Source: a virus. From it: a stretch of 50,066 nucleotides of DNA. Positions 6,448 to 50,066 of this stretch are shown here, one piece after another (within the stretch, counting starts at the first letter, position 1; each line of letters begins with the position of its first letter). The stretch covers positions 1 to 50,066 of the IMG/VR virus record IMGVR_UViG_3300037419_000163. The stretch is one strand, 5' to 3'. Under the pieces are notes generated by a model that worked only from the letters and a program-made list of their open reading frames with translations, had not been told where the DNA came from and did no database searches. Made by a program: the position numbers and the translations under genes.

Positions 6448-6975
6448 TTATCCTTTTAGTAGGCGTAAACCAATTCGTTCTATATCACTTTCCAATTCCT
6501 TCTCTACTCCTGCCTCTATACGCTTGGTTCTCTCCAACTCTTCTTTGGAAGGTCTTCCTCGCTTCGCAGCATATCCTCTCTCAGCAATATAACGGGCGGC
6601 AGAAACTCCTGCGGCATCGCCTCTTGACGAGGCTTTAATAACTGACCGGATGGCACTTGCCTTAAGCTTAATGTCAAGTTCCTCTCTCCACTCTGTGAAA
6701 ATTCCACGAAGCTGAGAATTACAAAGCTTAATCCAATGATCCCATGACTTAAAAGTTTCCTGTGCAAATTCATATTCTAAACCCGGAATGTGATCGTAAG
6801 AGAAGTATATCTTCTTCAGAGAAGGATAGGTAACTCCATCTACTTCATAGTCCTCATCCTTTAATGTCCATATAGGTGTGAAAGAGTCTGAACGTTTCTC
6901 GTAGAACAAACTCATGGTACGATAACGTCCATCATTATCTTTAAGAGGATTATTTGTAGGATTACTAAAAGCCAT
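6448..6975 (-). CDS. First gene of the late arm; possible DNA-binding / small-terminase-like protein
   Basis: 175 aa with an AAGGAA RBS upstream. The C-terminal AARYIAERGYAAKRGRPSKEE segment resembles small terminase / HTH proteins. This is a motif impression only. Confidence 0.3.
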   Translation of the reverse strand: MAFSNPTNNPLKDNDGRYRTMSLFYEKRSDSFTPIWTLKDEDYEVDGVTYPSLKKIYFSYDHIPGLEYEFAQETFKSWDHWIKLCNSQLRGIFTEWREELDIKLKASAIRSVIKASSRGDAAGVSAARYIAERGYAAKRGRPSKEELERTKRIEAGVEKELESDIERIGLRLLKG

Positions 6976-7108
6976 TATATTTCCTTCCAGCCATCGGAAC
7001 CGGGAATATTAAGAAACACTGTGTCGTCCTTAGAAGAAGGTGGGGTGTATTTTGATTTAAGAAGGTATGTGATTCACACATAGTCTTCTACCCGTTAGAC
7101 CATATTTA

Positions 7109-7117
7109 TGGTATAAT
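7109..7117 (+). promoter_or_regulatory. Extended -10 element TGGTATAAT
   Basis: Exact TGnTATAAT. No convincing -35. It is followed immediately by the 7122-7145 hairpin. Confidence 0.3.
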
Positions 7118-7121
7118 TTAT

Positions 7122-7150
7122 AAAGAAGGCTTTGTTGCCTTCTTTGTTTA
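7122..7150 (+). terminator. Perfect 9-bp hairpin AAAGAAGGC-tttgtt-GCCTTCTTT followed by a T-rich tail
   Basis: Read directly: 7122-7130 pairs with 7137-7145, then GTTTATTT. Confidence 0.45.
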
Positions 7151-7162
7151 TTTAGATTAGAA

Positions 7163-7182
7163 TGAGATGTTTTATCATCTCA
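7163..7182. promoter_or_regulatory. Hairpin TGAGATG-ttttat-CATCTCA
   Basis: 7-bp perfect stem, lying in the predicted 5' leader of the late (-) transcript. Confidence 0.4.
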
Positions 7183-7196
7183 ATAAAACAAGTAAT

Positions 7197-7205
7197 ATTA
7201 TACCA
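7197..7205 (-). promoter_or_regulatory. Extended -10 element TGGTATAAT on the - strand; candidate late-arm promoter
   Basis: The + strand reads ATTATACCA. It points toward gene 6448..6975. Confidence 0.4.
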
Positions 7206-7364
7206 TATTTTTACTTGTCTTTATAGATTCTGATATTAAATAGATTACATTATGTGAGGTGTCTACCACCGAACAATGCTCATAGTTCCTTTATACTGAA
7301 TGTCTTATGTCCCATATCCCACATTTCTATTAGATTTTATTTAGTTGTAATGCATTCTAAATCA

Positions 7365-7388
7365 ATACCCCCTATCCCCCATTACCCC
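7365..7388. repeat. Three tandem C-rich 8-mers ATACCCCC|TATCCCCC|ATTACCCC
   Basis: Read directly. Confidence 0.8.
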
Positions 7389-7461
7389 ATTAGGACATTA
7401 GGCTAATAAGAATTATTATTATTAGGACAATAGCCTATTGCCAATGAGAATTATTATTATT
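7389..7461. repeat. Iteron-like block: ATTAGGAC x2 (a third copy at 7944-7951), GAATTATTATTATT x2 (7410-7423, 7448-7461), palindrome CAATAGCCTATTG (7428-7440)
   Basis: Exact repeats read directly. Confidence 0.8.
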
Positions 7462-7505
7462 TAAGGTGTAATCAATTCTAATTCTCATTCTCACTTACTA
7501 ATAGC

Positions 7506-7559
7506 AATGATTATCATTACCAATTAGCCAATAGCCATGCGGTTTTCAATTCAATAGCC
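7506..7559. repeat. Palindrome AATGATTATCATT (7506-7518) plus two further CAATAGCC copies (7529-7536, 7552-7559)
   Basis: Read directly. Confidence 0.8.
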
Positions 7560-7591
7560 CATTGAGTAGTTATCCTGAATGCGAGTGCCAG

Positions 7592-7636
7592 GTATTACAA
7601 GTAATTCTTGTAGCATTCTTGTAACACTTGTAATAC
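7592..7636. promoter_or_regulatory. Operator-like array: 11-bp inverted repeat GTATTACAAGT / ACTTGTAATAC with three tandem 11-bp units (ATTCTTGTAGC, ATTCTTGTAAC, ACTTGTAATAC); the third unit is the right arm of the inverted repeat
   Basis: Arms at 7592-7602 and 7626-7636. Tandem units at 7604-7636. The array abuts the 7643-7651 promoter. Confidence 0.55.
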
Positions 7637-7642
7637 GGTATG

Positions 7643-7651
7643 TGCTATAAT
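7643..7651 (+). promoter_or_regulatory. Extended -10 promoter TGCTATAAT
   Basis: Exact TGnTATAAT. The expected TSS is near 7658. Confidence 0.5.
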
Positions 7652-7725
7652 GGTATTTGTTTAGTGGTAATGGTTTCCTTGGTTTCAGTCGCTACCTGGC
7701 AGCTCAGATTTTTGATGTTAGGGGG

Positions 7726-7754
7726 TTGACAAGGGTTTTAAACTCTGATTTAAT
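7726..7754 (+). promoter_or_regulatory. Sigma70-type promoter TTGACA-17 bp-TTTAAT
   Basis: Perfect -35, 17-bp spacer and a 4/6 match at -10. The expected TSS is near 7761. Confidence 0.5.
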
Positions 7755-8423
7755 GGCACCATGTTGTTTAGCACTTGGTTTCTGTCACACCGGCCTCACT
7801 TAGATGAGGACGTGCAAAAGGACGGTTTCTTAGTGGCTTGGGAAGAGTTCACGGCTCTCTAACTTAACGTGAAACCGCAAATGGATTTATTCCCGTCCTC
7901 ATGAGGAATATTCTAAGGATTAGCCTAGTAATTGTTTAAATGGATTAGGACTGCCACATCATTTACCCAATTACGATCTGATTAATCTTGAAGTTTGGAT
8001 ATTCAATACTGAATGATGAAACACTCATTCTTTATATTCGCGTAGGGTAATAAATCTTGAATGGGACGTGCGATTAATAATCGCTTAACAACTACCACAT
8101 ATTGCGGATGCTTACAGGGACATGGCAGGCACCATCTTAATTGTGTAAGCATACGATTGAAATCTTCTTAGCCTCCTAATGTTTGAATGGGAATGTATCC
8201 CGACTACGGAGATGGCAACTAAGAAGAGAATATAGTTTTAAAGGTATAACAAGGGATTAGTGCTAAAGACCGCACAGCATGGTTCAGGGTTAAGCGCAAG
8301 CGATAAGGGCAAACCGAATACGCCGCCTAATGTATAGGTAACACACAAGTTAGGTACTTGGGGCAAGAAACGAAATGCAAGAGTCGGTCAGCATTAACGA
8401 ATGTATAACCTGTAGGACAGAAT

Positions 8424-8456
8424 AAGCATTAAGGGCATTAGATGCTTAGTGCCCTT
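8424..8456 (+). terminator. Two interleaved hairpins, AAGCAT/ATGCTT (8424-8429/8442-8447) and AGGGCA/TGCCCT (8432-8437/8450-8455); weak terminator or translational control element
   Basis: Read directly. The downstream U-tract is poor (TATTGGTC). The element lies about 40 nt before the RBS of the first early gene. Confidence 0.35.
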
Positions 8457-8496
8457 ATTGGTCAATTCTGACCATAATCTAATGGAGATAATCACC

Positions 8497-9153
8497 ATGG
8501 CTACCAAATCAAAAGACAAAACGCAAGCGCAACAGGCAAAAACTTTTGAGGATAAGTCTGTTATTGAAGCTAAACCCGCGACAAGCGCCGCTATTGCTAA
8601 GGATACTAAGGCAATTGAGGCAGTCCAAAAAGTTGCCGTGGTCAAGGCAACTAACGATAAAGAGTTCCACGTACTCTGCCAACGTATTAAAGTTAGTGGT
8701 GATGTGCTTGCTACCACAATTCACAATGCTGGATTATATGCATTGCAGCAAGTGAATATTCACGGACAGACTCATCATGGTTTGATGCTTATTGAGGCAG
8801 TTGGCACTAAGCATGATAAGGTGCGTATTCTCAAGTGGCTAATGTTCTTTGGCAAGTTTGGGTACAAGAATAAACTCTTGATATACAAAAAGCGCAAAGA
8901 TATTGCGCCGGAAAATGTAGACAATTGGCTGAAACGTGCGGATGAAACCCCATACTGGGACTTAACCCCACAACCTGAAATGGAAGTAACCATTGATTAC
9001 TTATCAATGCTCAAGTCAATTGTCTCTCGTCATGAAGGCATTCCGAATCTTGAAGAGGCAGGGAAGAAAGTCACGGAAAAGAATGTTGGTGTATTGGCAG
9101 AGGTTTCCAAACTGCTAAAGAAATTTGGTGCGGAGGAACCAAAGACTGCTTAA
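8497..9153 (+). CDS. First early protein, function unknown
   Basis: GGAG at 8484-8487 lies 9 nt before the ATG at 8497 (MATKSKDK...). I prefer this to the listed 8449 start, which lies inside the hairpin element. Confidence 0.65.
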   Translation: MATKSKDKTQAQQAKTFEDKSVIEAKPATSAAIAKDTKAIEAVQKVAVVKATNDKEFHVLCQRIKVSGDVLATTIHNAGLYALQQVNIHGQTHHGLMLIEAVGTKHDKVRILKWLMFFGKFGYKNKLLIYKKRKDIAPENVDNWLKRADETPYWDLTPQPEMEVTIDYLSMLKSIVSRHEGIPNLEEAGKKVTEKNVGVLAEVSKLLKKFGAEEPKTA

Positions 9154-9378: not shown

Positions 9379-9446
9379 ATGAGTCGGTCATTTTTTATTC
9401 ACGTTCACATAATTAAGGAGTAACTATCCAAAAGGCGAGGGCTCTA

Positions 9447-10990: not shown

Positions 10991-11199
10991 GAATACAATG
11001 TAAACCAGTAATAGAAGAGACTAACTCTGCTATTTGTATGGGTCATATTTATCAATCAAAAGCTACTAAAAACTTATTCATTGGAGTAGCTGGATCACGG
11101 TTAATTTATCTTGATAGTGGTCATGAAATTCCTATTGATGAGCCTAATAACTATATTGATGTAACTGATCGATTCTCTTTGCAGGAAATTAAGAAATGA
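10987..11199 (+). CDS. Hypothetical protein (70 aa), coupled to the amidotransferase gene
   Basis: ATGA overlaps at both ends. Confidence 0.55.
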   Translation: MRIQCKPVIEETNSAICMGHIYQSKATKNLFIGVAGSRLIYLDSGHEIPIDEPNNYIDVTDRFSLQEIKK

Positions 11200-11795
11200 A
11201 ACACAATCCAGGTATTTTTTATGATAGTAGTTGTCAAGATGTAGAGTTTGATGACTATTTGTTGTTAGGTGGTGGTACTGATATCAATCCAATCATGTAT
11301 GGGCAAAAGAGTTTCGGGTATTGTCAGTCTCCTGATAATAGAAGAGATGCTAGAAACCTTTCCGCTATCAAGAGATACACAATAGAAGGTAAACCTGTAA
11401 TTGGTATATGCCGTGGTCTACAGATTCTGGATGCTTACAATGGTGGAGAGTTAATCCAGCACTCGGTCGGTCATTCGTCGTTGGTTCCGGTATTCGTGCA
11501 AGAAGATGGAAGACTTCCAGATACACTTATTGATAACTGTCGCAGTTGTCATCACCAAGTTGTTGACCATACAAAGACAACAGGAAATATATTGGGGTAT
11601 TCCAATTATCAATACAGAGCGTTCTTTCCTGATACAACAAAGTGGCTTGGTATGCTCCCTCAGATAGTTTATTGGCCTGATCGTAAACATCTTGGGGTTC
11701 AGTTTCATCCTGAATGGCATGGTGAAAATCATTCCATGAATGTCTATCTTCGTTCCCTGATTAAAGAGTTCTTTGATCTGGAAAATGTACTGTAA
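11196..11795 (+). CDS. Class I glutamine amidotransferase-like / peptidase C26 (gamma-glutamyl hydrolase, PuuD-like)
   Basis: GKPVIGICRGLQIL (nucleophile Cys elbow), SCHHQVV, GVQFHPEW (His/Glu). Confidence 0.75.
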   Translation: MKHNPGIFYDSSCQDVEFDDYLLLGGGTDINPIMYGQKSFGYCQSPDNRRDARNLSAIKRYTIEGKPVIGICRGLQILDAYNGGELIQHSVGHSSLVPVFVQEDGRLPDTLIDNCRSCHHQVVDHTKTTGNILGYSNYQYRAFFPDTTKWLGMLPQIVYWPDRKHLGVQFHPEWHGENHSMNVYLRSLIKEFFDLENVL

Positions 11796-11832
11796 TTAAT
11801 CAATATTAAATTAAAAGGATTAGGATTTTAAC

Positions 11833-12621
11833 ATGGGTAATTTGTTTACAATTGGGACTGATACAGAGTTGTTTGCACACAACAAGAACAACGGACAAAT
11901 GATTTCTTTGTGTGGAAAAATCGGAGGTAGTAAGGACAAACCACTTCAAATAAAAGAACTTCCTCGTGGTTATTGTGTTCAAGAGGATAATGTTTCTTTG
12001 GAATTTAATATTCCTCCTGCCACATCGGAATTTGAATTTACCGAATCTATTGCTGCAATGATGATGAGGGTAGGGCTAATACTCAAAGAAATGGGTCTTT
12101 CAGTTTCAGCTATGGCTTCTGCTTCTTTTGCCAAATCTGAATTGACACACCCGAATGCACTTATCTTTGGATGTGAACCAGACTATAGTGCTTGGACTAT
12201 GAGCGAAAATCCAAAGCCTGCTTGTGATGATCCTACCTTTCGTACAGCAGGTGGACACGTCCATGTAGGAACTGATGCTAATATGATTCAAGCAGTTAAG
12301 TGGATGGACTTGTACCTTGGGGTTCCCTCTGTAATTATGGATAAATCCGAAGGAGCAGCAGAGCGTCGTCAACTTTATGGAAAGGCAGGGGCAATGCGTC
12401 CTAAGCCTTACGGATTTGAATATCGGGTTCTTAGTAACTTCTGGGTATTCAAACGTGAATTAACAAATTGGGTCTACAACAATACGCTCCATGCTGTTGC
12501 ACATTCAAAATCAGACATGCCCGAAGAACTTAATGATCGGATCGTCAATTGCATTAATAACTCCGATACTGTTGAAGCTCTTAAAATAGTTTCTAAATAT
12601 CGTATTCCTCATTTCGTATGA
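11833..12621 (+). CDS. Phage COOH-NH2 ligase (glutamine-synthetase-fold amidoligase), type-2-like
   Basis: IGTDTELF, SLEFNIPP, GGHVHVG and GFEYRVLSNFW follow the GS/GCS2-fold ligase motif order. Confidence 0.55.
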   Translation: MGNLFTIGTDTELFAHNKNNGQMISLCGKIGGSKDKPLQIKELPRGYCVQEDNVSLEFNIPPATSEFEFTESIAAMMMRVGLILKEMGLSVSAMASASFAKSELTHPNALIFGCEPDYSAWTMSENPKPACDDPTFRTAGGHVHVGTDANMIQAVKWMDLYLGVPSVIMDKSEGAAERRQLYGKAGAMRPKPYGFEYRVLSNFWVFKRELTNWVYNNTLHAVAHSKSDMPEELNDRIVNCINNSDTVEALKIVSKYRIPHFV

Positions 12622-13124
12622 AAGTAATCGAACATTTTAAAACATTATTACAAATCCCTGATGCATCTATAGCTCTTAATGAGGCACGAGCTAAACTCAG
12701 GGATACAATAATGCGTATAGATGGACACTTAATGAGTGTAGCAACTATGGATTTTGGTACACTCGTAGTTCATGACAAAGATGGTAATGGATATGATTTA
12801 AGTGGGGATGATATTAAGACCCTTGAATTTTTCCTACCAGAATCAGGGGTATATTTTATAAAGGACACACCTATAGCTCTTGTTAAAATTCCAAAGAGAC
12901 AATGGAAAAAGTCATTTAATTGGAGTTTCTACGAGGCTAGTAAAACTTTCAATATATGTGAGTTGGATGAGTCTAAGTGTCATGAAATCTATTTGCATAA
13001 GGGAACAGTGTATTATTTGACAACCCCTATTGGAAAGTATCAAGCTAGGACAGATAAGTTCATATGTCTTAACTCAGTTTTTGAAAATGAATTGAACACC
13101 TTTATTAAAAGATTAAAAAAATGA
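12618..13124 (+). CDS. Hypothetical protein inside the ligase cluster
   Basis: 168 aa with 4-nt overlaps on both sides. Confidence 0.6.
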   Translation: MKVIEHFKTLLQIPDASIALNEARAKLRDTIMRIDGHLMSVATMDFGTLVVHDKDGNGYDLSGDDIKTLEFFLPESGVYFIKDTPIALVKIPKRQWKKSFNWSFYEASKTFNICELDESKCHEIYLHKGTVYYLTTPIGKYQARTDKFICLNSVFENELNTFIKRLKK

Positions 13125-14233
13125 GTGAACCAAAGATAGGGGATATATATGTATATCCCAAACTCAAGGTATATGATGGACTTACGGGTAACTTTCCCAT
13201 TAGGAACCCTGATTTATATTTTGGGATTGAAGTTGAGGCTGAGATGGTCGGTCACATTTCATGCCATACCATACCTGGATCATGGAAGACAGTGGAAGAT
13301 GGCTCTCTCAAGATATCTGGTGCAGAGTATGTAACTGTTCCTATCAAGTTTAAGTTTCTAGAAGTAGAATTAAAAAGGCTTTTTGGAGCTATTAAAGAGG
13401 CCGAATTCTCTTGCCGCACATCCATTCATGTACATATGAATGCAAGAGATATGACTCCTGAAGAGATTGGAAGATTTCTTGTTATCTATATGATATTTGA
13501 GAAAAGCCTCTATCGATTTGCAGGATTTGATCGATGGAAAAATAACTTCTGTGTGCCAATTTACTGTTATGCTAATTATGCAGTAACTATGCTTAGTAGA
13601 CTTCTTAATGGTGGTGGACTATATGAGTCATGGACAAAGTACCATGGCTTAAACTTAGTACCTCTTTATGGTAAAGAAGATTCTTCGGCTAGAATTGGAA
13701 CAATTGAATTTCGTCAAATGAGAGGGAATAATGACGTTGAATTTATTCTCAATTGGTGTAATTTAATTTCCAGTATGAAGAATGCGGCAAAGACGATAGA
13801 GACTAAACAACTTATAGAGTACATTGAGTTTGGGGCGGTGAAGTCTCTAGCTTCAACAGTGTTTACTAAATGGCTCCATCTATTAGAAACAGATGAGTTT
13901 GAAGAAGACACATCTAGATGTCTTACTAAGACTAAATTTGTTCTAAATAAAGTTGGAACACTTAAGAATACTATCGACCAGCCTAAGCCCAGAGCCACAA
14001 AGGTAAAGATTCCTTCACCTTCATTACATACTACTATGAGTATTGATGATCTTATGGCAGATGTGCAAGTTGCATCTGTAAATGATCCTGTGCCAAATTC
14101 ACTTAATAATGCTGCTGCTTCATTTAATAATTGGTTTACTGCACATATACAAGCACAGCAGCAGCCGTCAACGGTATGGACAACAGTAACAGCTAACACT
14201 CAAAATAACAATAATACTACGGGAACTCTTTAA
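13121..14233 (+). CDS. Amidoligase (Amidoligase_2-like COOH-NH2 ligase)
   Basis: YFGIEVEAE, GSLKISGAEYVTVP, TSIHVHMN, GTIEFRQMRGN. Confidence 0.65.
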   Translation: MSEPKIGDIYVYPKLKVYDGLTGNFPIRNPDLYFGIEVEAEMVGHISCHTIPGSWKTVEDGSLKISGAEYVTVPIKFKFLEVELKRLFGAIKEAEFSCRTSIHVHMNARDMTPEEIGRFLVIYMIFEKSLYRFAGFDRWKNNFCVPIYCYANYAVTMLSRLLNGGGLYESWTKYHGLNLVPLYGKEDSSARIGTIEFRQMRGNNDVEFILNWCNLISSMKNAAKTIETKQLIEYIEFGAVKSLASTVFTKWLHLLETDEFEEDTSRCLTKTKFVLNKVGTLKNTIDQPKPRATKVKIPSPSLHTTMSIDDLMADVQVASVNDPVPNSLNNAAASFNNWFTAHIQAQQQPSTVWTTVTANTQNNNNTTGTL

Positions 14234-14235
14234 TT

Positions 14236-15402
14236 ATGTGTGGAATTGTAGGTGTAATGTCAAGATATGCAAATGGACTTTCATTGTCCCAAGTAGATAC
14301 ATTTCAAGAAATGTTATTCGTAGATCAACTACGAGGAAGACATGGAACGGGAATGTTTTGGGATACAAAGAAAAAGAAATCTAATATTATCAAAGGGCCA
14401 ATTCCCTCTCATGAATTTCTAGCCTGTGATAATGTACAAAAAGCCTTTAAGGAGATTTTCCAAGAAGCAAGTTTTATTGTTGGTCATAATCGTCATGCAA
14501 CTAGGGGTGCTCATACTTTTGAGAATACACATCCGTTCCGTGAGAATCACATTACATTGATTCATAATGGGACGTTGCATACTCATAAGCACATGAAAGA
14601 TGTTGAAGTGGATAGTCACGCTATCTGCCATTCTATGGGAGAGATAGGAGAGATACCTACTATTGAAAAGCTAGATGGGGCATTTGCATTAGTATGGTTT
14701 AATTCAAAAGATAAGACATTAAACTTCATTCGTAATTCGGAAAGGCCATTGCATCTTATTGAAACTTTAGGTGGGTGGTTCTTTTCGTCAGAGTTGGGAT
14801 TGGCCGAATGGATTCTTAAGCGGAATAAACTCTCAATTAGTAAATCGGAAATGATTGAGACAGGTTTGCTTTATACCTATTCCGTATATGACCATACGTT
14901 AACAACAGCACAGGTGAAGATTAAAGAACCTTATGATTATTACTTTAAGGGTAATAATAAATGGGAAGCAAAGAATCAGGATTACAGCAGGTCTACCATA
15001 GACTATACAGCACCATCTGCTGGCCCCTTGGTTGTAGCTCCTGAAATAAAGAAAGGAGAATCGAGTGTAGGAGTGGATTTTAAATTAGGACAGATGGTAA
15101 CATTTTCTCCTATACAAATACATGTATCGAATACCACTTATTATCTAGAAGGATTGTGTGATACTCCTCTGAATACCCCTGATATCTATGTTAAGGTGTT
15201 TAATGGTAATAAGACTTACTTAGAAGGATTGTTGGATCATCCTACTCTGAGGGGCGAGGTTACGCAGATATATAGTGATCCTAAGGATAAGAATATCAGT
15301 CTTCGTCTTAAGAATATTACTATGGCTTTATATCCAACTGAGGGAACTGATCTTCCTGATTCTGATCCCTATGTAACAAACATTATGCAGGGAGTTCATT
15401 AG
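14236..15402 (+). CDS. Class II (Ntn) glutamine amidotransferase domain protein with an unknown C-terminal domain
   Basis: N-terminal MCGIVGV (Cys2 nucleophile), GHNRHATRG, HPF, LIHNGTL, DSHAI. Confidence 0.75.
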   Translation: MCGIVGVMSRYANGLSLSQVDTFQEMLFVDQLRGRHGTGMFWDTKKKKSNIIKGPIPSHEFLACDNVQKAFKEIFQEASFIVGHNRHATRGAHTFENTHPFRENHITLIHNGTLHTHKHMKDVEVDSHAICHSMGEIGEIPTIEKLDGAFALVWFNSKDKTLNFIRNSERPLHLIETLGGWFFSSELGLAEWILKRNKLSISKSEMIETGLLYTYSVYDHTLTTAQVKIKEPYDYYFKGNNKWEAKNQDYSRSTIDYTAPSAGPLVVAPEIKKGESSVGVDFKLGQMVTFSPIQIHVSNTTYYLEGLCDTPLNTPDIYVKVFNGNKTYLEGLLDHPTLRGEVTQIYSDPKDKNISLRLKNITMALYPTEGTDLPDSDPYVTNIMQGVH

Positions 15403-37479: not shown

Positions 37480-38037
37480 CTAATCAAAAATAGATTGAAA
37501 TGTATTGCCACCACCTGCTGAGAGGCCAGCCCCTTTACCACCACCCAACATGGTAGAGACTGCTCCTGCTGTATTACTCACAGCCCCAAAGATAGACTGC
37601 CACATTTGTCCCTTAGCACCAGCAGTATAGAAGTCACTTTGAGCCTGAGCAGAACGCTGATTAGCAGCACTGATCTGAGCAGCAAAGTCAGACATCTGCC
37701 CTAGATTACCAAGATTCTGTCCTAGCTGTGAACGTAGACTTCCTGTTGCACCAGATAGTCCTGAGGAACCTCCATTAGTTGGCCCTACTCCAATTCCAGC
37801 GTTACCAGCAGTGGCAATTACATTCGCCCTACGAATTCGTTCTTCCCTAACTTGGGCAATACGATCTCGTTGAGCAATTGCGTTTGCCCTAGCTTGTTCT
37901 ACACGCTGAGCTTCTTGTTGAGCTTCAAATTGACGTTGAGCGGCTTTCTGTTGTTTCTTAGCGGCTCCCATCTGCATAACAGTGCCGCCGATAGAAGCAG
38001 CAACACCTACAACAGCGGCAACAACGGCTATTGGCAT
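37480..38037 (-). CDS. Internal virion protein candidate with an N-terminal TM helix
   Basis: MPIAVVAAVVGVAASIGGTVM, then a Gln/Ala/Arg-rich coiled coil and a Gly-rich C-terminus. Confidence 0.45.
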   Translation of the reverse strand: MPIAVVAAVVGVAASIGGTVMQMGAAKKQQKAAQRQFEAQQEAQRVEQARANAIAQRDRIAQVREERIRRANVIATAGNAGIGVGPTNGGSSGLSGATGSLRSQLGQNLGNLGQMSDFAAQISAANQRSAQAQSDFYTAGAKGQMWQSIFGAVSNTAGAVSTMLGGGKGAGLSAGGGNTFQSIFD

Positions 38038-49465: not shown

Positions 49466-50066
49466 GGTATTCCCTCGTCAATATAAGTTGCCCATTGTCC
49501 GGGCCATTGAAATATATCACCTGTACAGTTCGACATTCCCCACCACGATCCATCTTCAATGAAGGGACAATCTTCTTGAATAATACCCACACCTTTTGCC
49601 AACCACAATTCGATTACATAACTATTATAATCTTTGTATGATTGATAATATGGGCCTTTGCCTTTTGCTGCTAAAGGACAATCACATCTAATTATTGGAC
49701 GGCTAGATTGTTTAGTCCCATGATACATTACAATATGGATTACATCAGTATATGTCTTTCCATACCCTGCTCCCCATACCCCACTTGCATCCCTTCCGTA
49801 TGGAACCGTATATTGTGGAAGTGCCTCAATAAGTCCGGTTCTACTAAAGGCTTTTGCTCCTGAGTTAGTATAAGCTGCTCCCGGTGTATTCTGCCTCCAT
49901 ACATCTACTTCTATTGTTGCTGGTGATTCCGTAATACCATTTGCAGGCGACCATACAAGTCCGGTATTAGCTCCTGTTGATGTCTTATACCCCAGAACTA
50001 CATTAGGTGTACAAGGACTTCCGGCATACCAATCCCCTGTTTCTGTAATACTAAGGTCAGTCCCGA
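49462..50066 (-). CDS. 3' part of the junction-spanning 276-aa hypothetical protein (49940-50066 duplicates 1-127)
   Basis: The frame stays open from the window end to the stop at 49462 (hand-translated) and is continuous with 353->1. Confidence 0.7.
   Translation of the reverse strand, partial: GTDLSITETGDWYAGSPCTPNVVLGYKTSTGANTGLVWSPANGITESPATIEVDVWRQNTPGAAYTNSGAKAFSRTGLIEALPQYTVPYGRDASGVWGAGYGKTYTDVIHIVMYHGTKQSSRPIIRCDCPLAAKGKGPYYQSYKDYNSYVIELWLAKGVGIIQEDCPFIEDGSWWGMSNCTGDIFQWPGQWATYIDEGIP
49940..50066. repeat. Second copy of the 127-bp terminal direct repeat
   Basis: Identical to 1-127. Confidence 0.95.

Follow-up and report, generated by a model that had tools for sequence, protein, structure and literature searches.

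Comparative analysis of the phage genome IMGVR_UViG_3300037419_000163 from IMG/VR (the whole stretch of 50,066 nucleotides (nt) analysed here is termed the window) indicates that a real conserved structured RNA is almost certainly encoded on the + strand, in the right part (7658–8496) of the divergent 1.5-kb gap at 6976–8496; the left part of this gap is AT-rich and repetitive, and the gap as a whole exceeds the finding. The conserved core of the RNA, about 250 nt, is made up of a pseudoknot (PK1), a long-range helix that closes a multi-helix domain (helix P2) and a hairpin with a UAAUA loop, and is flanked by lineage-specific 5′ and 3′ extensions (Table 1). By the same comparisons the RNA has been kept in 16 or more related sequences of viruses or bacteria. 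It is read here as a previously undescribed RNA family, which falls within the known categories of large orphan structured phage RNAs and structured early leaders yet is unrelated to any of their members. The original prediction, made from the window alone, had proposed a structured non-coding RNA or long leader whose class was open and possibly new, and this is borne out by a region that is non-coding and conserved, with covarying + strand helices, TTGACA promoters and no corresponding Rfam model.

Relatives and the conserved core

Relatives were gathered through a protein search with the early protein of family phrog_1448, contig look-up and degenerate-pattern scans, and were assigned by similarity to group A (the window, L008, L009 and L011), group B (L001, L015, L013, L024, L012 and L002, the last being MW202697) and group C (L023, L027, L017, L029 and L016). 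The same arrangement, namely a structural gene, a gap of 1–2 kb devoid of credible genes and an early gene, is seen in 15 other phage contigs. Scanning one genome per prokaryotic species with the pseudoknot pattern yielded one true member, in Nitrosospira sp. Nsp14 (L033), along with three chance matches inside genes. The RNA has so far been found only in this one clade of uncultured soil and freshwater podophages and at this one Nitrosospira locus. The candidates L007, L032, L034 and L035 were dropped as chance matches, lying in unrelated context or inside coding sequence.

The conserved blocks appear in the same order in all groups, and conservation resides in loops, junctions and pseudoknots rather than in stems. 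PK1 is a pseudoknot of the H type, with two interleaved stems that are both supported. In an alignment of 13 sequences (A4) it is 90% paired and both sides change in seven of its eight pairs; stem S1 is 81% paired, two rows being misregistered by the aligner, and stem S2 is 100% paired. Its covariation score of 0.747 compares with 0.27 ± 0.05 in shuffled alignments (0/500) and with 0.165 or less when the partners are slid. The loop at 7859–7867, CUAACUUAA, is A-rich and corresponds to the family consensus AUAACAA. The UAAUA hairpin (alignment A5, 13 sequences) is 95% paired, changes on both sides in all five of its pairs and reaches a covariation score of 1.02 as against 0.26 ± 0.07 in shuffled alignments (0/500).

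Helix P2 consists of an invariant CCC-GGG pairing extended by member-specific arms, each of which matches its own partner (8 base pairs (bp) in the window). Among 14 members, the variable arms pair with their cognate partners at −4.74 kcal/mol as against −2.07 kcal/mol for non-cognate partners (0/20000 permutations), and the cognate partner ranks first in eight of these members, the window among them. The (C/U)AGGG motif of the 3′ strand is found in all members but L027, which has CUAGAG. RNAalifold recovers helix P2 in group B, where it encloses further covarying helices, and 28 of the 39 predicted pairs are compensatory. Covarying helices in the domain inside the helix comprise, in groups B and C, a GGUUAC/GUAACC pairing, a P4 hairpin and a GUGA-N4-UCAC hairpin with UAAC on its 3′ side; the internal domain of the window is not alignable to these.

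For PK1, the UAAUA hairpin and two hairpins at the 3′ boundary of the RNA (T1 and T2, described below), the named structure beats all 500 shuffles and all slid versions. Pairing cells across the covarying helices contain 27 G·U combinations as against seven A·C combinations, an excess which indicates that the + strand RNA is the folded strand.

Homology searches and novelty

A covariance model built from group B only recovered group C with expectation values (E) of 6e-10 to 3e-3, L009 with E 0.0065 and L033 with E 0.068. Model R2, built from the 13 other members only, finds window positions 8065–8096 (+) with 26.8 bits and E 2e-5, the next match being at E 1. An ordered descriptor of PK1, CCCG, helix P2 and the UAAUA hairpin gives one match in the window (7840/7892/8045/8075) and none in 300 shuffled windows. 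Sequence-only hidden Markov models reach group A weakly (E 0.01–0.04).

Searches against known families returned nothing. The Rfam comparison that had been proposed (GOLLD, ROOL, HEARO and all other models) was run with Rfam 15: there was no match at the gathering threshold over the whole window, riboswitch classes included, and a permissive search of 7000–8600 gave noise only (E of at least 1.2, at most 20 bits). The RNA regions of nine relatives likewise gave nothing in Rfam at E up to 1. With BLASTN, the RNAs of the window, L033 and L017 found no isolate carrying the RNA among 50,697 phage records, the only match being that of an upstream DNA element to MW202697, and the L033 RNA found no carrier among plasmid records. 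Judged by the neighbouring structural gene, phage MEP402 is the closest relative in culture, and neither nhmmer nor the covariance model detects the RNA in it. Pattern scans of IMG/VR yielded no further members, and no paper describing the RNA turned up in full-text literature searches.

Non-coding character of the gap

No open reading frame (ORF) of 60 amino acids (aa) or more lies between the − strand gene at 6448–6975 and the ATG at 8497 on the + strand, which upholds the earlier observation of the same for 7658–8460. The + strand ATG ORFs of the gap are limited to 33 aa (7761) and 36 aa (8061), and a − strand ORF of 107 aa (8394–8717) is merely antisense to a real gene. The short ORFs had been described as lacking Shine-Dalgarno sites, and we agree; they carry no codon signal and are not conserved. 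Five members have no ATG ORF of at least 25 aa in the region.

In comparisons of close pairs, mismatches in the gap are distributed over the three codon positions as 24/31/19, 20/22/20 and 48/53/48, without periodicity, and the indels are not multiples of three and break the frame. The adjacent gene shows in the same comparisons 56/16/10, 78/26/18 and 68/35/22 and a single indel of 3 nt, that is, the third-position excess expected of coding DNA. None of the comparative findings that could have overturned the original prediction arose: codon periodicity was not found, covariation is present, and the region is kept in collinear relatives.

Promoters and promoter-proximal elements

Tandem sigma70-type promoters had been proposed to feed the RNA, and both sequences are present (promoters P1 and P2 in Table 1). 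They gain support from group A, in which about 95 nt separate two TTGACA-type promoters that each have a copy of a duplicated segment behind them, and the −35 box stands 117–126 nt 5′ of PK1. The window block 7614–7671 aligns with L009 353–411, which contains TTGACA-17-TATACT, and in L011, too, a second TTGACA promoter lies farther upstream. Ten members have, 5′ of the RNA, a −35 box that fits the consensus or nearly so, at 16–18 nt spacing (TTGACA in eight, TTGACT in L008 and TTGACG in L002), and the L033 promoter reads TTGACG-17-TATATT. A generic promoter and terminator scan reported nine promoter-like sites where 7.5 ± 2.5 are expected and flagged neither P1 nor P2.

The promoter-proximal tandem duplication is visible in the window itself, where 7652–7705 resembles 7755–7797, and it accounts for part of the recurrence of the four short motifs that had been pointed out in the region and that are indeed present there. 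Another recurrent sequence, (G)GTCGGTCA, occurs in the window at 8383–8389 and 9383–9389, in L009 at 430 and 1130, in L011 at 95 and 693, in L008 at 3713, in L001 at 3782 and in L013 at about 2830, often with a TTGACA box 12–25 nt, or a TATAAC-like hexamer about 12 nt, to its 3′ side; a regulator may bind it, or it may be a promoter element specific to the phage. GTCGGTC has seven copies on the + strand of the early region of the window, five of them intragenic.

Flanking domains and terminal hairpins

The extensions around the core differ between lineages. The 5′ domain of group A is recognisable by BLAST (window 7786–7821 against L009 526–561, 86%), and the arms of its hairpin 7794–7798/7805–7809 differ yet are complementary in L011 (CTATG/CATAG) and L008 (CATG/CATG). 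On the 3′ side, the extension at 8228–8427 is missing in L011 and in groups B and C.

All helices listed in the original prediction are fully complementary. Its palindrome at 8070–8084 is backed comparatively by the covariation of the UAAUA hairpin. Its 9-bp helix 8108–8116/8144–8152 with the inner helix 8122–8125/8132–8135 has also stood up: in L023 and L027 both stems are rewritten and complementary, with the loop motifs GGAAC and CUUAAUUG preserved, so that three sequences support the element, and L027 501–535 matches window 8113–8147 by BLAST at 86%. The nested helices at 8163–8227 are complementary and mostly appear in the minimum free energy (MFE) fold, and L008 has analogous nested helices of other sequence (UGUACC/GGUACA, CUCA/UGAG and CCAUG/CAUGG), so that support for this domain may be called moderate. 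Two elements failed the comparison. The helix 7804–7812/7894–7902 with the enclosed 7823–7829/7871–7877 is found in the unconstrained MFE fold and is specific to the window and not conserved; these helices compete with the conserved local hairpin 7794–7798/7805–7809, cross helix P2 and touch or overlap PK1. The hairpin 8011–8016/8025–8030 lies in a variable segment and has no comparative support. PK1 and helix P2, the elements that define the family, were absent from that earlier list.

Hairpin T1 is probably the 3′ end of the RNA, where it would act as a leaky terminator or a stabiliser. In an alignment of 13 sequences (A6) it is 89% paired, with both sides changing in seven of nine pairs and with 16 G·U pairs, and its covariation score is 0.655 as against 0.23 in shuffled alignments (0/500). 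Its 3′ arm leads straight into a U5 tract in groups B and C, so that T1 resembles a leaky intrinsic terminator more closely there than in the window. Positions 600–950 of L024 contain two T1-like hairpins (GARAAG..CA / UG..CUUUUU) that flank a small ORF between the RNA and the phrog_1448 gene; this type of hairpin may thus be a general punctuation of early operons. The stem equivalent to T2 in groups B and C (alignment A9) is 98% paired, with six of seven pairs compensatory, and an identical T2 palindrome precedes the orthologous gene in L008. T2 alone may be a palindromic operator.

Table 1. Positions of the RNA, its modules and its boundary elements in the window
Feature	Positions	Strand	Composition and remarks
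Promoter P1	7643–7651	+	extended −10 TGcTATAAT; start near 7658
Promoter P2	7726–7754	+	TTGACA-17-TTTAAT; start near 7761
Whole structured RNA	7761–8457	+	~700 nt from promoter P2, ~800 nt from P1; ends at T1
5′ domain, group A only	7786–7821	+	CACACCGGCC; hairpin 7794–7798/7805–7809; conserved single-stranded block GACGUGCAAAAGG (7809–7821); alignment A2
H-type pseudoknot PK1	7844–7871	+	S1 7844–7847/7855–7858 (AGAG/CUCU); S2 7850–7853/7868–7871 (CACG/CGUG)
Helix P2, 5′ strand	7884–7894	+	GAUUUAUU and invariant CCC (7892–7894)
Variable internal domain inside helix P2	7895–8044	+	hairpin 7928–7943/7959–7974; inverted repeat, constrained fold
Helix P2, 3′ strand	8045–8056	+	invariant GGG (8045–8047) in (C/U)AGGG; bulged U8048; AAUAAAUC
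UAAUA-loop hairpin	8070–8092	+	8070–8074/8080–8084, then UUAACAAC (UAACAAC)
Hairpin with conserved internal loop	8108–8152	+	GGGAC / CUUAAUUG; outer 8108–8116/8144–8152; inner 8122–8125/8132–8135
Nested helices, group A accessory domain	8163–8227	+	8163–8171/8219–8227; 8173–8176/8208–8211; 8189–8192/8198–8201
3′ extension, group A only	8228–8427	+	blocks such as GGUUCARRG (8281); alignment A2, motif table
Terminal hairpin T1	8430–8457	+	UAAGGGCA/UGCCCUUA; conserved loop ends CAUUAG...UAGUG
Hairpin T2	8459–8474	+	GGUCA-AUUC-UGACC; just 5′ of the ribosome-binding site
Shine-Dalgarno and start of first early gene	8484–8499	+	GGAG 8484–8487; ATG 8497; 218 aa, phrog_1448

The Nitrosospira copy and proposed autonomy of the RNA

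In Nitrosospira sp. Nsp14 (NZ_FOPV01000035.1, L033 4171–4651 on the − strand) the RNA has its own promoter, ends at a strong hairpin GGGGUAC/GUACCCC and faces a convergent gene; no co-directional ORF of 60 aa or more was found in the 1.2 kb directly downstream of it. This configuration favours an autonomous early RNA module that doubles as a leader of the early operon. Among the phages, other small genes intervene between the RNA and the phrog_1448 gene in L008, L024 and L001/L015, so that the downstream gene varies, and this variation, along with conservation in loops, junctions and pseudoknots, again points to a module in its own right. On balance the sequences thus tip towards an autonomous module rather than a gene-specific leader.

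The bacterial locus itself (L033, 1–8000) resembles a mobile element, with a tyrosine-integrase fragment at 181–483, a tRNA-Lys(CTT) at 7386–7461, the RNA and a DNA element conserved in the phages. It encodes a 187-aa protein that is 62% identical to the window ORF 37480–38037, a structural-gene homologue, and a 399-aa protein (phrog_4756) with LPIHDSFIV, recalling motif C of single-subunit RNA polymerases. The integrase fragment, the 62% homologue and the DNA element make the locus look like a prophage remnant or a satellite of the phage clade.

Favoured explanation and its rivals

The reading that we favour overall, with belief and doubt about equal, is that of an autonomous early RNA that would terminate in part at T1 and act on a host or phage factor. 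Starting at one or two strong promoters of the sigma70 type, host RNA polymerase would transcribe it before anything else once infection has begun, and T1 would serve as both a leaky terminator and a 3′ stabiliser. Partial termination would let a discrete RNA accumulate, and read-through transcripts would bear the RNA as the leader of the early operon. Its function would be independent of the downstream gene; most likely it would bind a host or phage factor in takeover, counter-defence or control of the transcription or translation machinery, although this trans-acting mechanism is itself a tentative choice that falls short of an even chance. A bolder version, which we regard as speculative and fairly unlikely, is that the RNA represents a new class of large autonomous RNA (a ribozyme, an RNA-only assembly or a ribonucleoprotein (RNP) scaffold), portable between lytic podophages and a Nitrosospira element with an integrase fragment, and acting in trans in phage–host or phage–satellite conflict instead of controlling the adjacent gene.

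Several observations weigh against this interpretation, beginning with the place of the window in the family. The group B model puts its top match in the window at the right place, with E 0.67, which is not significant, and model R3 (PK1, built without the window) has its top match at 7840–7876 with 14.8 bits and E 0.19; the window is thus a divergent member, whose membership rests on modules, synteny and the group A intermediates. The + strand MFE z-score is weak at −1.64, as against −3.5 for the − strand (20 shuffles), and with the promoter scan at chance the sequence alone is not clearly above chance; the case for a structured RNA therefore comes from the comparison with relatives. These relatives are few (16 related sequences), and the shuffle controls ignore phylogeny. 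A natural deletion of about 38 nt in L001 (4340–4390 compared with L015 2850–2910) removes all of PK1 and leaves the rest of the RNA 80–85% identical, so that PK1 may be dispensable, or the L001 genome defective. The U-tract behind T1 is poor in the window (UUAUUGG), where the terminator scan made no call at T1; the ends and abundance of the RNA, like termination at T1, are what we infer from the sequences. Autonomy hangs on a single bacterial locus, possibly a prophage fragment that is decaying or has been rearranged, and in every phage member a co-directional gene follows without a clear promoter of its own, so that the RNA is physically a leader.

The main rival is a purely cis-acting leader, which would work by processive antitermination or would sense a cellular signal and thereby control both how often T1 is read through and, by way of T2, how accessible the ribosome-binding site is; we consider it unlikely. 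HK022 putL and putR, lambda nut (boxA-boxB) and the boxA of rrn leaders are cis-acting antiterminator RNAs of about 12–70 nt. Like these, the present RNA is structured and stands right after early promoters and before a terminator-like hairpin and a long operon, here a co-directional early and middle block of about 22 kb, and a gene follows it in all phage members. It also carries UAACAA twice as a conserved single-stranded motif, similar to the 3′ half of rrn boxA (GCUCUUUAACAA). The full consensus GCUCUUUAACAA (or CGCUCUUA) is missing, however: only UAACAA is kept, the upstream bases including the 'GCU' part covary as stem S2 of PK1, and the U-rich centre is absent, on which grounds a boxA or nut reading was rejected. 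The core of at least 250 nt, moreover, sits in an RNA 5–10 times larger than any known antiterminator RNA, the following gene varies among members, and the L033 copy lacks a downstream operon. In groups B and C, T2 may also be half of a second pseudoknot (GGGGC/GCCCU) that abuts the Shine-Dalgarno site, which would suit a cis-acting leader; its stem is invariant and unproven, for a pairing that never varies is neither supported nor refuted by comparison.

An origin primer transcript in the manner of ColE1 RNA II, whose hybrid with DNA would prime the leading strand and which a satellite-like island would carry for replication by a helper phage, is a weaker rival that we rate as improbable. It could draw on the AT-rich direct and inverted repeats just upstream (7389–7520), on an ORF-free, multi-hairpin sigma70 transcript of a size near that of RNA II (about 550 nt), and on the joint presence of the RNA, the upstream DNA element and the structural-gene homologue in a small Nitrosospira element with an integrase fragment. 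The minimum of cumulative GC skew at about 7400–7600, however, lies upstream of the RNA and coincides with the switch of gene strand. No antisense unit like RNA I was identified, nor was a conserved opposite-strand promoter-like sequence noticed in the RNA segment, where the scan sites are at chance level. Conservation lies in loops and a pseudoknot across very divergent members, not in a G-rich/C-rich hybrid pair, and points to tertiary structure or factor binding rather than to a mere R-loop. For the core, the two remaining explanations are essentially excluded. That the signals act at the level of DNA, as cruciforms, as single-strand signals or as operators to which the winged-helix-like first early protein would bind, would agree with the perfect T2 palindrome in the window and L008, with the predicted helix-turn-helix and wing-like fold of that protein (weak PDB matches, E >0.2) and with the recurrence of GGUCGGUCA near promoters in relatives. 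Interleaved pseudoknot stems and helix strands 150 nt apart are not operator geometry, though, and the G·U over A·C asymmetry between strands and the conservation of loops rather than stems make this very improbable. That small protein genes lie hidden in the region, among them the ORFs of 33 aa (7761) and 36 aa (8061), is hardly credible: short ATG ORFs do exist, and the automatic annotation of MW202697 places seven tiny ORFs in the equivalent gap, but the codon positions are flat, the indels break the frames and neither the position nor the presence of the ORFs is conserved.

Comparison with known RNAs and significance

Few large RNAs combine conserved pseudoknots with long-range helices and invariant nucleotides in their loops, and past examples proved to be ribozymes, riboswitches, RNP scaffolds or RNA-only assemblies (GOLLD, ROOL, OLE). 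The resemblance to GOLLD and ROOL that had been suggested holds for the size class (about 0.5–0.8 kb), as it does for the phage-borne location, the many conserved helices and pseudoknots and the conserved loop and junction nucleotides. It does not extend to a covariance-model match, none being found even at permissive E values, or to tRNA adjacency: GOLLD and ROOL often lie next to tRNAs, whereas an ARAGORN search of the window detected neither a tRNA nor a tmRNA. The new RNA also differs in being fixed as the first transcribed segment after early promoters.

Like the phi29 pRNA, it is a podophage non-coding RNA from the outermost early promoter; the pRNA, in contrast, measures 174 nt as against about 700 nt and belongs to another phage class, there is here no sign of protein-primed replication, and no match arose in the Rfam search, which is assumed to include a pRNA family. 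With the pseudoknots of T4 gene 32 and of ribosomal-protein operons it shares the H type with an A-rich third loop in a leader, and T2, possibly with the second pseudoknot, abuts the Shine-Dalgarno site; PK1, however, lies about 630 nt 5′ of the start codon inside a far larger conserved fold, and no cognate RNA-binding protein was identified here. The P4 CI RNA and P1 C4 RNA are likewise functional RNAs from early-operon leaders, also found on an integrated element, but they are about 70–80 nt long and pair in antisense, and no target-complementary sites were identified here.

The sharply defined setting of the RNA, as the first early-promoter product of a podophage clade, offers a concrete handle on its function, and the copy in the cultured Nitrosospira sp. 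Nsp14 makes transcript mapping and genetics feasible now. The seemingly "empty" gaps of 0.7–2 kb at the early end of the genomes in this clade hold neither junk nor tiny genes.

Genome setting and further observations

The window is a complete phage genome of about 49.9 kb, its bases 1–127 being identical to 49940–50066, which denotes a circularly closed assembly. The gene at 6448–6975 (−, phrog_8035) places it among Zobellviridae-like podophages, and the nearest cultured relatives are the Methylophilales phages MEP401 and MEP402, with about 51% identity in the phrog_8035 protein. The − strand carries the structural genes, and the + strand carries the co-directional early and metabolic gene block, from 8497 to about 30.2 kb.

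The first early protein (8497–9153) has no Pfam match and no PDB sequence match. Its AlphaFold2 model (predicted local distance difference test score 70) shows a helix-turn-helix and a beta-hairpin with weak resemblance to MarR/PrfA winged helices, and the fold matches that reach significance are all uncharacterised early proteins from podophages, phiKMV-like ones and others. The analysis of this protein gave no clue to the function of the RNA.

The AT-rich repeats at 7389–7520 include ATTAGGACATTAGGCTAATAAGAATTATTATT twice and the palindromic AATGAGAATTATTATTATTTA / TAATCAATTCTAATTCTCATT; they are iteron-like and may be a candidate replication origin. At 7322–7400 a conserved DNA element reads AATTTCTAT(T/G)AGATTTTATTTAGTTGTAATGCA, after which come three C-tracts (ACCCCC..CCCCC..ACCCC). 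All long relatives share it, at 1.0–1.3 kb 5′ of the first early gene or, in L008 with its additional gene, at 1.9 kb. The Nitrosospira locus has it too (L033 7150–7240), in inverted orientation with respect to the RNA. A promoter-like site on the − strand (TTTAGA-16-TAAAAT, 7361 to 7334) overlaps this element, which may promote or regulate leftward transcription of the structural operon or may serve as a signal for packaging or as an origin. Within the leader of that operon, an 11-bp hairpin with a T-run at 7120–7147 is terminator-like on the + strand and is kept in L008 (L008 2869–2971 corresponds to window 7117–7213, 76%). Further into the early block, the cluster at 11196–15402 encodes a glutamine amidotransferase, a COOH-NH2 ligase, an amidoligase and a GFAT-like aminotransferase, a gene content that suggests modified-metabolite synthesis or macromolecule modification.

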